Source: Eledone cirrhosa (taxonomy: Eukaryota). From it: a stretch of 64,000 bases of DNA. Below, piece by piece: positions 33,456 to 62,998 of this stretch; position 1 is the first letter of the stretch, and each line of letters begins with the position of its first letter. The translations under genes were made by a program, and so were the position numbers. The notes under the pieces were generated by a model. It did no database searches. It was not told where the DNA came from and was given only the letters and a program-made list of their open reading frames with translations. The stretch spans positions 403,248,001 to 403,312,000 of the forward strand of contig OZ024740.1 of the NCBI GenBank assembly GCA_964016885.1, in the 5' to 3' direction.

Positions 33456-33998
33456 TATATATATATATATGAAATTTGAAAAAACATAGTTGCTACAATG
33501 CAGATAACTATAATAGAAAATGTCCATATTTTCTCTCTTCGGGTATATTTTAGCTGATTTATTCAACTATTACCCATAGTTGTCAAACAGTATTATAGTT
33601 ATCTGCATTGTGGTGACTATATTTTTCAAATATGGATAGGTAGATGGATGGTTGAGTTAGTGTGTAGATGGATGGAAAGATGGAGAGAGAGAGGGGGAAC
33701 AGATAGATAGATAGATAGATAGATAGATAGATATGTTTCTTTTATTTGCCACCAGGGCATCAAAAGTGGGACAAGTACAATGGGGGGAGTTTACAAAACA
33801 AGGCATCCTCAATAAGGAGGAGGCAATAACAATATATAAAAATAAAATAAAATATAACAAAAAATAAAATTTATAACAAAGTCCTCAATAGAGAGGAGGC
33901 GCCTTGGGGGGTCGCACACACCCCCGAAAAAAAGTGTGCAACCCTTTTCCTCAGGAGCACAGAAAAAGGGTGCTCCCTTGGTCTTTCATCTTCCTCAC

Positions 33999-36900
33999 CT
34001 ATAGTCTGATGTAGAGTGAAGGCCCATTCACACGGGCCATTCTCGCCACTTTCACCCATCTTTCATAAAAACGACTGGGGTGCAGCACCTCTCTCTCCAT
34101 CCTGATCCTTCTTCCGAAATGATATTGGAAGAAACGGACCAGTTGTTGGCCAGAGAGAAAGGTGTCTGACCTCAGTCCTTTCAGACGCGTCCACCATACA
34201 ACCTCTTTCGCCATGGCTATTACGCACAGAAACACCGCCTCTTCTTCGTTTTTGAAGAGGGGAGGCGGCTTGATCGTTACAATAGACTCGGTGGTCAACC
34301 GGATCGGTCCCACCCTTGACAGCAGTTGTTCGACATAGCCCCACAGATCGGCAATGCCCGAGCAGTGTACCAATGCGTGTGCAACGGTTTCCTCGTCGCA
34401 CACGCATCTGGGACAGATCTTTTTCGAGGGGTCCCTACCCGGGCGCCCGTGTCTGTAGAGCCTTTCTCGAACGGGCAGAGCCCTTCAGTAGCATTGCCAG
34501 GCCAGGGACCTCTGGAAGTTATCCATGGGTCCCGGGCTGAATGTCCTACCGAACAGGTTGGCCAGTTCGTCTTCCTCCATGCCTAGGGCTTCTCCGAGGG
34601 CGTCGTCGCACCTGCTAACCACCAGCCCTCTATAGAATGACGAGGTGGATTCTCCACTGACAGCCGGGTCCGCCTGCCAGAGAGCCGTGAGTGCCTGGGC
34701 ACACTCCGTGTGCCAGGCGCCCAGTTTTCTCGGTCTTTGCTTGACCCAGGATTGCAGCTCGGTGAGTGAGACGAGTCTGGGAAAGGCTCGCCTCACAAAC
34801 GGGGCCCACACCGGTTGACCGGAGAGGAATACCTGAAGGTGCCGTAGCCTTAATGCGTGTTTACGTATCATTAACCACGGCATCCCCAGCCCTCCTTTCG
34901 AAGGGTGTTGACAGCAGATGGATCTCCTCACCATAGAAGCCCGCTTCTTCCAAAGGAATTGGAAGAGTGCGCGCTCCATTTTGGCGAGCGTTTCCCTTGG
35001 GCAAGGCACAACGGTCAGGCGGTAGTAGATGACGGACGCTATATAAGTATTCGCCACCTCCGCCCGACCTTTCAGGGATAGTTTGCAACTGGCCCACTTC
35101 TGGGTCAGTGCAAACACTCTGTTCGTTACCTCACCCCAGTTCTTCCCCACCTGGAGGTCTGGTCCGAACCAGACCCCGAGCAACTTCGCCGGGCCGTCCG
35201 TCCAGCGCCCGACGACGCCATCGGAGGGCATCGATCTGCCCCTCCACGTGCCGAGTTGCAAACCGATCGACTTGTCCCGGTTCAGCTTAGCCCCTGTAAA
35301 CCTTTCGTACTCCTACAGTAAGGTGCCGATCGCCCCGATTTCCGAGGCCGTCGACACCATTACTGTTACGTCATCGGCGTAGGCTGACACCGCTTTCCGC
35401 AATCCCGGTTCCAACGGGATGCCCTGCAACAACTCCAACTTCCGCAGTAGTGGCTCTAGAGTCACTACATACAGAAGAGAGGAGAGAGGGCACCCCTGTC
35501 GGATGGACCGCGCGATTTCGAACGGCTCCGAGAGGTAGCCGTTCACCTTGACCCTAGAGCAGATGCGGCTGCTGTGCCTGGCATTGATCCAGCCCCTGAA
35601 AACGGGTCCGAAGCCTGCCGCCGCTAGCACCGCATCCAGATAACCATGGTCGACCCTATCGAATGCCTTAGATTGATCCAAGTTTATCAGGGCCCCACCA
35701 AAGCCGAGTTCGTTCCCAACCCTCTCTATGAGGTATCGCATCAGGTGGAGGTTGTCGTGGATGGACCTGGACGGGATAGCACATGTCTGCGCATCTCCCA
35801 CCAGGTTACCCACGACAAGCGCCAATCTCTTTGCTAGCACCTTGGCCAAAATCTGTAACTCTGTATTTAGCAGAGTTATGGGCCTGAAATTATTTATATC
35901 GTCCCCCTTGTTCTCGTCCTTCCTCACTAGCGTGACTACGCCCTTGGTCACAGCACAGGGAATTCTCCCGTTCTGTTGCCAGTTGCAGTAGACCGCCTCG
36001 AGGAGATCGGGGAACAAGTCCGGCATAGCTAGATATAGTTCGTATGGAAGACCATCGAGACCCGGGGATTTGCGTTTGCCGCATTGGCTCAGCACGTCCT
36101 CTATCTCAGCGGCTGAAATCGGCTCCTCGCAAGACTTCGCCTCCCTGTCCGAGAGACGCGGCAGGCCGTCGAGGTATGGACCGAAGTCCACATCCCCAAC
36201 CGGCTCCCCTCCCCTTCCGAACAATCCGGCAAAGTGCTTTTGAAAAGCCTCGCACATCTGCTTAGGTTCAAGGATCACCCGTCCATCCTGGTCTCGCAAA
36301 GAGCGGATAGTGGATCTACTCCCTCTTTTGGCTTCTGTCACGCGGGCCCAGCTAACAGCTTTGGTCTCCTCGTTTCCCAGCACGTATTTTGCTTCGGACG
36401 ATGCAGCCTTCGTGTTTCGCGTCGAAGAACTGGCCCAGGGCCGTTCTCGACGCTAGCACTCTGGCCACGTCGCCGCTTCTAATTGCCTCTTCAACACTAT
36501 CTACCAACTCCCTTTCCTTCCTATTTCTATTTGAGGCTAACTCCTTACTAAATTCTATAGAGACTACTCTAATCTCTCTTTTGAGAGATCCCCACCACCT
36601 GCTGTTGACGATGGCGCCCGTCAACCGCTCCTTAACTAAAGTGCTAATCCGGTCCCTGTAAGCCTTACTTGCCGGTAAGGACAAGTTGATCTTCCAGTAA
36701 CCGGGTCCCTGTCTATGAGTTCTGTCAAGGTTGACCATGCAGGTCACTAACTTGTGGTCTGAATAGCCAACCATGCGCATTTTTGGACAACTTAAAAAGT
36801 CCTTATCCTTAATTCTAACTAAGAACCTATCTAGGTACGACCTAGATGATCCGCTACGATTTGCCCAAGTCCAGGTTGGCGCAGTCGGAAAATCTAGTCG

Positions 36901-61718: not shown

Positions 61719-62998
61719 GTGGAAAAGAGGAAGGAACGAGGGAGCACCCCCTCTCTGTGCTCCTGAGGAAAAGGGTTGCACACTTTTTTCGGGGGTGTGT
61801 GCGACCCCCCAAGGCGCCTCCTCTCTATTGAGGATTTTGTTAAAAATTTTATTTTTTGTTATATCTTATTTTATTTTTATATTTTGTTATTGCCTCCTCC
61901 TTATTGGGGACGCCTTTTTGTGTAAACTCCCCCCTTTGTACTTGTCCCACTTTTGATGCCCTAGTGGCAAATAAAAGAAACATATCTATATCTCAATCTC
62001 TCTCTCTCTCTCTCTCTCTCTCCTTCACACCCTCCCCTCTCTCGCTCACTCTCTCTATCCTTCACTGTTCCCCCATCTCTCTCTCTCTCTCTCTCTCCCT
62101 CTCTCGCTCATTCTCTCTATCCCTCACTGTTCCTCCTCTTTCTCTCACCCTCTCTCTATCCCTTCCTGTCTCCCTCCTCTCTCTCTCTCCCTCACTGTCT
62201 CCTCTCTCTCTCTCTATCTATCTATCTCTCTCTCTCTCTCTAGCCCTCACTGTCTCTCCTCTCTCGCTCATTCTCTTTATCCCCCTCTCTCTATCCTAAA
62301 TTTTTCATATACTTCGTACGAGCATTTATGTAGTTTGCACTAGAATTTTTGTATCGTAGCGGCACGCTTAGAGATAGTATTAGTATTCATTTTCGGGATT
62401 CTGAATTATTATTTCGTATTAGTTTATTTTTTTAACTGGGTGGTTGCTGGCCTTGTGCCTAGGGTAGAAACAATTATTTCGTATTAGTTTCGGAATTCTG
62501 AATTATTATTTCGTGGTAGTTTCTTTAGTATTTTGACCCCCCACTTGTTGACCAGTCACCGTAAGATATACTCGGTTCATTACTACTAACTCTTAAAATG
62601 GTCTCACTACAATTCCGTCCCACCTAGTAAACTTTTCTATAGTTTAGCAGTACCAGTGAGAGACTTGATGATTATGGTTAGGGAATAGTAACCAGAAATT
62701 GTTTTTTTATATTTTTAACATTCTTGGTATTCTTCTATATATTTACTCCATACTTGACTTACTTATTGTTTCGACTTCCTCCTCCTCCCCCTCCCTAGTA
62801 TACTTGCTTGACCTCCTGCCCTGCTGTAGTTGGCACTATCAACGCACGACTGGGTTTCCTCCACTCCCTCTCCCTCTTTCTTCTAATGGCAGGTTCAGCT
62901 ACCCTTTCCTTCCACAAATTGCCATGATAGAATTATGTGTCCCAACAACAAACTTTTGACCAATCCTTGAGACAATCACTTTTACCATATATGGAATT

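Follow-up and report, generated by a model that had tools for sequence, protein, structure and literature searches.

Several LINEs prefer a microsatellite as their target. In the accessible parts of the reports, the repeats used are (TC)n, (TTC)n, (TTCC)n/(TTTC)n, (AC)n, (ACAY)n, (TAA)n and (TG)n (PMC4494074, PMC3812793, PMC4640811), and the molecular basis of microsatellite targeting by APE-type LINEs is described there as not well understood (PMC3812793). Kibi with (TC)n, Koshi with (TTC)n and the crocodilian Tx1 elements with (TTCC)n/(TTTC)n are LINEs of the L1 group with an APE endonuclease (PMC4494074, PMC3812793), like the lineage described here. Compared by target and not by kinship, they use pure pyrimidine repeats in vertebrates, whereas the present lineage, from a probable octopod, uses (TATC)n, has a sister clade at (ATT)n, and also tolerates TATAT and isolated motifs. 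Waldo with (ACAY)n and Mino with (AC)n, both of the R1 clade, are also APE elements with microsatellite targets, their repeat units being different (PMC3812793). Among solved structures, the closest relative of the ORF2 of the present lineage is human L1 ORF2p.

Tx1L of Xenopus laevis is likewise a two-ORF APE LINE, and its endonuclease (EN), which nicks a specific target, is a model for EN-determined specificity (PMC1950540). The Tx1L target is a DNA transposon and its EN has a hairpin loop of 11 residues, whereas in our alignment the loop of the present lineage has nine residues, as in human L1. Human L1 also shares with it a short-motif target and duplications of similar length, but inserts at TT/AAAA, has a poly(A) tail and encodes a Transposase_22 ORF1, while the lineage described here has a CCHC-type ORF1 and nearly always lacks poly(A). 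Dong belongs to the R4 clade and has an endonuclease of the restriction-like type, whereas the ATT sister clade described below is an APE element of the L1 group with an RT 75% identical to that of the window family. The repeat used by Dong, (TAA)n, is the same as that of this sister clade (PMC3812793). For Octopus vulgaris, a repeat annotation reports 13 recently active L1-Tx1 families, and the word 'target' is absent from its accessible text (PMC13282606). Our literature search found no paper on a LINE that targets GATA/TATC; Repbase and Dfam lay outside that search.

We analysed a stretch of 64 kb (the window) that contained five copies of one L1-group LINE with an APE endonuclease and an RT. 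Their 3' ends were located at 33734, 39478, 45323 and 46306 on the minus strand and at 61982 on the plus strand. The 3'-end motif was found five times in exact form, and eight times when up to one mismatch was allowed, compared to 0.58 expected. The features are as follows.

33701..33733, minus strand: target array of (TATC)8 where the tandem stack ends on its 3' side
33734..39466, minus strand: full-length copy A of the divergent subfamily (5,733 bp); stops and frameshifts break ORF1 and ORF2
39467..39477, minus strand: two TATC units and a short leader, separating the 3' end of B from the 5' end of A
39478..45283, minus strand: full-length copy B (5,806 bp) with two open ORFs; RT motif YADA and not YADD
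43203..45065, minus strand: ORF1 of copy B, 620 aa counted from the first Met
39741..43178, minus strand: ORF2 of copy B, 1,145 aa, with APE endonuclease, RT and a zf-RVT-like C-terminus
45284..45322, minus strand: spacer with TATC units and the 5' leader of B, separating C from B
45323..46289, minus strand: copy C, 5'-truncated (967 bp), 99.5–99.8% identical to B, D and E
46290..46305, minus strand: (TATC)4, separating the 3' end of D from the 5' end of truncated C
46306..51148, minus strand: copy D, 4,843 bp, 5' truncation inside ORF1; ORF2 open (46570–50007), YADD
51149..51220, minus strand: (TATC)18 array upstream of truncated D
56146..56176, plus strand: 5' target-site duplication of E, 31 nt; TATC units precede it, and its end falls ambiguously within (CT)n
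56177..56189, plus strand: 13-nt leader in TATC phase between the duplication and the start of E
56190..61982, plus strand: full-length copy E (5,793 bp) with a broken ORF1 and an open ORF2 (58296–61718)
61983..62013, plus strand: 3' target-site duplication of E, with TATCTA directly after the element end

All five 3' ends were directly followed by TATCTA without poly(A), and TATC units were present at or just before each 5' junction, including those of the truncated copies C (46289) and D (51148), as a sequence-only reading of this DNA had claimed. Copies A to D formed a head-to-tail stack on the minus strand with spacers of 11–39 nt, and each spacer was the 3' flank of one copy and the 5' flank of another. 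Due to this double use of the spacers the window represents two independent sites and not five. Copy A was 84–87% identical to B, D and E over its own length, and B, C, D and E were 96.8–99.8% identical to each other. The proposed division into two subfamilies was thus seen in the window by identity, but the lineage as a whole is wider than two subfamilies. None of the five copies was fully intact: B had YADA in its RT, A and E had broken frames, and C and D were truncated. The 5' side of copy A consisted of just TATCTATCT and GG, and a short GGG/CT stretch lay between the 5' end of copy B and its TATC tract. The 13-nt leader of E would have been part of the element RNA. No insertion was present in a (TAGA)20 array at 27773–27854 of the window.

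The Pfam search of ORF2 returned Exo_endo_phos and RVT_1, with zf-RVT slightly below the cut-off, and no match to RNase H. Human L1 ORF2p was the best solved relative in the PDB (E 1e-47, compared to 1e-17 for R2) and also provided the top Foldseek matches. The AlphaFold model (pLDDT 63, under 50 in the hairpin region) agreed with the L1 ORF2p fold and is informative for nothing beyond this. The catalytic EN motifs are intact. ORF1 of copy B had one C-x2-C-x4-H-x4-C knuckle and linkers rich in Asn and Gln; it had no Pfam match, and its look-alikes in the Atlas were zf-CCHC and ZCCHC3-RBD clusters at 0.90–0.92. The N-terminal APE endonuclease, the RT, the C-terminal zinc-binding region, the 5' truncations and the variable duplications are features of the L1 group. 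ORF1 is of type I (RRM-type and CCHC, not Transposase_22), a type that is not exclusive to Tx1. In the accessible text of PMC5203782, an ORF1 of CCHC/RRM type is associated with Tx1 elements. Membership in the Tx1 clade is likely. The closest named protein was from Argonauta hians, with 66% identity in the RT, which makes an octopod host probable; named Tx1 elements were absent from the relatives retrieved.

To count 3' ends in the whole genome we used a 24-nt pattern that included no flank, and only exact matches were counted. This resulted in 2,624 ends. The background was taken from 20 pieces of 10 kb (200 kb) at fixed positions, with frequencies per position of 0.0023 for TATCT, 0.027 for TATAT and 0.00005 for TATCTATCTA. 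TATCT came next after 2,214 of the 2,624 ends (84%), about 370-fold over background. TATCTATCTA came next after 1,406 of the 2,624 (54%), which is an enrichment of roughly 12,000-fold that rests on only 18 background sites. Both values exceed the presence of the target in >20% of flanks that is used as a criterion in PMC4494074, as far as its accessible text goes. TATAT followed 282 of the 2,624 ends, about 4 times the background. Together the TATCT or TATAT register accounted for 95% of the 2,624 ends, and the base after the end was other than T in only 22. Poly(A) was absent in nearly all copies.

For a closer view of the flanks we took the first 100 places listed on one contig, a sample that is consecutive and not random. 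Counted by position, their 3' flanks read T100 A100 T100 C83/A16 T100 A89 T97. All 100 started with TAT, and none of them lay in (TC)n or (TTC)n, the repeats used by Kibi and Koshi. A (TG)n start was also seen in no sampled copy. The earlier claim that (TA)n carries no copies was correct for the window, where 1,482 TA 10-mer sites and 52 TATC 10-mer sites were present, but it failed for the genome, as shown by the 282 TATAT ends and by (TA)4 or longer on both sides of 7 of the 100 sampled copies. The use of (TA)n was about 90-fold lower per site than that of TATC. The target is a motif of about 7 nt, TAT(C>A)T(A)T, and arrays are strongly preferred. The predicted targeting of TATC/GATA held as a strong preference genome-wide; strict specificity for microsatellites did not, since TATAT and isolated TATCT were accepted. 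Thirteen of the 100 sampled copies were ≥99% identical to a window copy. Family-related sequence was found at a distance of ≤300 bp for 39 of the 100, and in a few cases this was a continuation of the same copy.

The 5' junctions were informative for the copies called truncated, which made up 85 of the 100. A TATC run was present at 43 of these 85 junctions, compared to 0.21% of random 30-mers, and TATCT at 56 of the 85, compared to 5.8% of random sequences. It had been stated beforehand that the targeting idea would fall if most truncated copies lacked a TATC flank, and this was not the case. Five of the 85 had (TA)n only. Neither TATCT nor (TA)n was present at 24 of the 85 called junctions; of these, five were explained on inspection (L116, L118, L121, L132 and L162), and most of the others look rearranged. 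All 15 copies called full length had TATCT upstream. Since full-length copies carry a TATC/TC 5' leader and this TATCT is partly their own, these 15 copies are not informative. Leaders beyond the duplication were also seen in L146, L157 and L174.

Unambiguous target-site duplications were found at 24 of the 100 loci, with lengths of 9–27 nt including microhomology. In 24 of 24, both copies of the duplication started with TAT[C/A]T, and the duplication began at the first base past the element. The flank is therefore target and not tail. The presence of TAT after nearly every 3' end and the TATC/TC leader of full-length copies would also fit an origin of TATC as the element's own 3' tail, as in LINEs of the RTE/CR1 type, with the elements making the microsatellites. 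However, at non-repeat sites the duplication started right after the element end with the same bases on the 5' side, TATC was upstream of 43 of the 85 truncated copies, and pure (TA)n flanks without any TATC exist among the sampled copies. Additional TATC units on the 3' side relative to the 5' side were found at none of the 15 testable loci, which together with the duplication starts argues against an element-encoded 3' repeat tail. We consider this origin of TATC to be largely refuted and very improbable.

Another explanation is random insertion, with copies surviving or accumulating in microsatellite-rich DNA by selection or recombination. Recombination between copies may have produced some of the tandem neighbours and rearranged 5' junctions, but random insertion as an explanation for the target is refuted by the fixed register, which was kept to the single base in 95% of the ends. 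Moreover, the commoner (TA)n was under-used, (TG)n was not used by the sampled copies, and two sister clades split two repeats without overlap. This is the least probable of the explanations considered here.

Further patterns were used for related families. A second 3'-end pattern matched 10,527 ends of sister families, of which 9,088 were followed by two bases and TATCT; this pattern also picks up a few ATT-type copies, e.g., L331. A third pattern matched 7,659 ends of a related clade, the ATT clade. ATTATT followed at the same register after 6,692 of these 7,659 ends, about 1,200-fold over background, and 35 of 40 fetched loci began with ATTATT. An ATT run was present at 8 of 23 junctions flagged as truncated (random 1%), five of the 23 being a variant with another 5' half and not truncations. 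TAT[AC]T followed none of the 7,659 ATT-clade ends, an observation that is compatible with an endonuclease-led and with an RNA-led choice of target. Altogether the genome contains at least 13,000 TATC-type and at least 7,600 ATT-type 3' ends.

Between the TATC and the ATT clade, identity was 59% in the EN, 75% in the RT and 65% in the C-terminus. For the betaB6-betaB5 hairpin loop, the prediction was NRSGSSRS in the TATC clade and NRIGSSRS in the ATT clade. The stronger divergence of the EN than of the RT (59% vs. 75%) was considered as evidence and rejected, because the outgroup had the same pattern (37% vs. 53%). We clustered 191 C-terminal segments and built a tree from the 17 representatives and seven database proteins. 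It placed the TATC families in one clade (100/100) and the ATT families outside of it, in two branches of an open node. This topology suggests that the ATT target may be ancestral. The different targets of the two clades are likely to reflect DNA-cutting domains that read different short sequences.

We assume, with somewhat better than even confidence, that in this recently active L1-group lineage the site is selected by a protein part, most likely the endonuclease, that recognises TAT(C>A)T(A)T, and that copying starts exactly at the element end. This reading is based on the fixed register, the TATC at the 5' junctions of truncated copies, the duplications and the lack of 3' slippage. It is further based on a preference upstream of the site, which cannot pair with the RNA: among 12 truncated insertions with a non-array downstream flank, five had TATC in the four bases upstream, compared to 16 of 899 in the 200-kb background (p = 3e-6). 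This points to recognition across the nick. The 22 ends with a base other than T were also followed up; flanks were read for 20 and loci fetched for 16. In five of the 16 (L345, L347, L348, L351 and L352) the variant first base was present on both sides, so that the base comes from the target. A poly(A)-tailed copy, L341, was nevertheless located at a TATAT site. Finally, the EN motifs are intact, and there is the precedent of the Tx1L EN, which nicks almost exclusively its own target (PMC1950540, accessible text). The recognising part is likely the APE endonuclease or another DNA-binding surface of ORF2, which would read both sides of the nick.

According to the mechanism we propose, a bottom-strand nick directly 3' of ...AGATA, placed with an ambiguity of one base, would prime target-primed reverse transcription. 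An AATAAA is located 7 nt before the element end. Cleavage for poly(A) addition normally takes place 10–30 nt downstream of this signal. Because of this spacing, transcripts would be cut inside the downstream flank and would carry a few UAUC units, which would pair with the nicked strand and determine precisely where copying begins. The duplication would result from a second, staggered nick about 10–20 nt downstream. An insertion would leave targets on both sides, and full-length copies would add their TATC/TC leader, so that later copies could stack.

Targeting by the endonuclease is our inference, and RNA pairing is a live rival, which we nevertheless regard as rather unlikely. In the RNA-led model the endonuclease nicks loosely (e.g., at TpA, which is common to T^ATC and T^ATT), copying takes place only where a read-through tail of (UAUC)n or (AUU)n pairs, and the target is inherited via the flank of the donor. 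It would account for the exact junction without poly(A) despite the AATAAA 7 nt upstream, and for the much stronger enrichment of long than of short matches in the downstream flank. R1Bm RNA requires downstream target sequence for accurate initiation (PMC7265360, accessible text), similar to what we assume for the RNA of the window lineage. The model is also favoured by the near-identical hairpin loops of two clades with different targets. Against it speak a preference that reaches upstream of the nick, the lack of register slippage or added units at 15 of 15 loci, the poly(A) copy L341 that is still at TATAT, and the mismatched first bases that derive from the target at five loci. A variant of it, in which the lineage is a naturally RNA-reprogrammable APE retrotransposon that nicks loosely at TpA and passed from (ATT)n to (TATC)n by a changed read-through flank with the hairpin loop almost unchanged, is in our opinion even more doubtful.

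Some observations speak against recognition by protein. The betaB6-betaB5 hairpin loop, which is implicated in target reading by the L1 EN (PMC1950540, accessible text), is predicted to be nearly the same in both clades, and TATCT and (TA)n were both missing at the called 5' junction of 24 of the 85 truncated copies. Another poly(A)-tailed copy, L342, was inserted in (TAA)n, as pairing of the tail predicts. At the junction of L132 a T was present where the units of the flanking minisatellite have C, a hint that RNA templated the first base. Both copies are in agreement with the RNA-led model.

What is added here are the genome-wide counts, the evidence from duplications, the tolerance of TA and the sister relationship of two targets. 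(TATC)n extends the list of known targets, if it is not already in Repbase. One further microsatellite target is an incremental step; with two closely related clades that share no target, the question of EN or RNA becomes directly testable. Since both sister clades are abundant and recently active, with RTs 75% identical and targets that do not overlap, swaps of the EN or of the RNA tail can test which of them determines target choice. In this genome the microsatellite landscape is shaped by elements of the TATC and ATT types, and markers based on GATA may be confounded by them.

Among the assembled contigs, none bridged an empty insertion site. Metagenome loci numbered 80, with best segments that were mostly 23–33% identical (42% in one case) and thus too distant for a comparison of targets. 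An RT tree of 187 of 308 sequences (redundancy filter 70%), which had no labelled anchors, contained a 13-member clade with a support of 1.0.

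The sister clade of the TATC clade differed from it in the sequence that follows the 3' end. In a genome-wide count, ATTATT was found 3' of 6,692 of the 7,659 sister-clade ends, and TAT[AC]T followed none of these 7,659 ends. The 3' architecture was common to both clades throughout the genome. Among the fetched loci, this ATT clade is exemplified by L405, L406, L416, L425, and L426. Several ATT-clade copies had both ORF1 and ORF2 open and were about 99% identical to each other.

Five further ATT-clade copies (L398, L401, L402, L420, and L423) matched the main type of the clade over the 3' 3.75 kb and differed from it in the 5' half. 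Their sequences suggest that a 5' UTR/ORF1 exchange gave rise to the variant 5' half. Copies A and B of the window showed 56% identity in ORF1 and about 90% identity in ORF2.

Two copies of the TATC lineage carried a poly(A) tail right at the element end; one of them (L341) was located at a TATAT site and the other (L342) within (TAA)n. The copy at L165 had its 5' part inverted at the junction, which resembles the 5' inversions of L1.

Insertions also recurred within other repeats. A single TATCTGT site within one repeat, a putative RTE-type endonuclease gene, was hit by three independent insertions from two families (loci L169, L174, and L312). One TATC stretch of a different dispersed repeat received recurrent insertions at loci L030, L078, L093, and L172.

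No insertion was present in the perfect (TAGA)20 array at 27773-27854 of the window, 6 kb away from the stack of tandem copies. The window also harbors the following repeats:

9255-11000, forward-strand coordinates: interstitial TTAGGG-like array, degenerate and about 1.7 kb long
234-468, 3454-3736, and 26850-27432, forward-strand coordinates: self-complementary (inverted-repeat) segments

The inverted-repeat segments, which adjoin or include TA/AG microsatellites, are possibly MITE-like.
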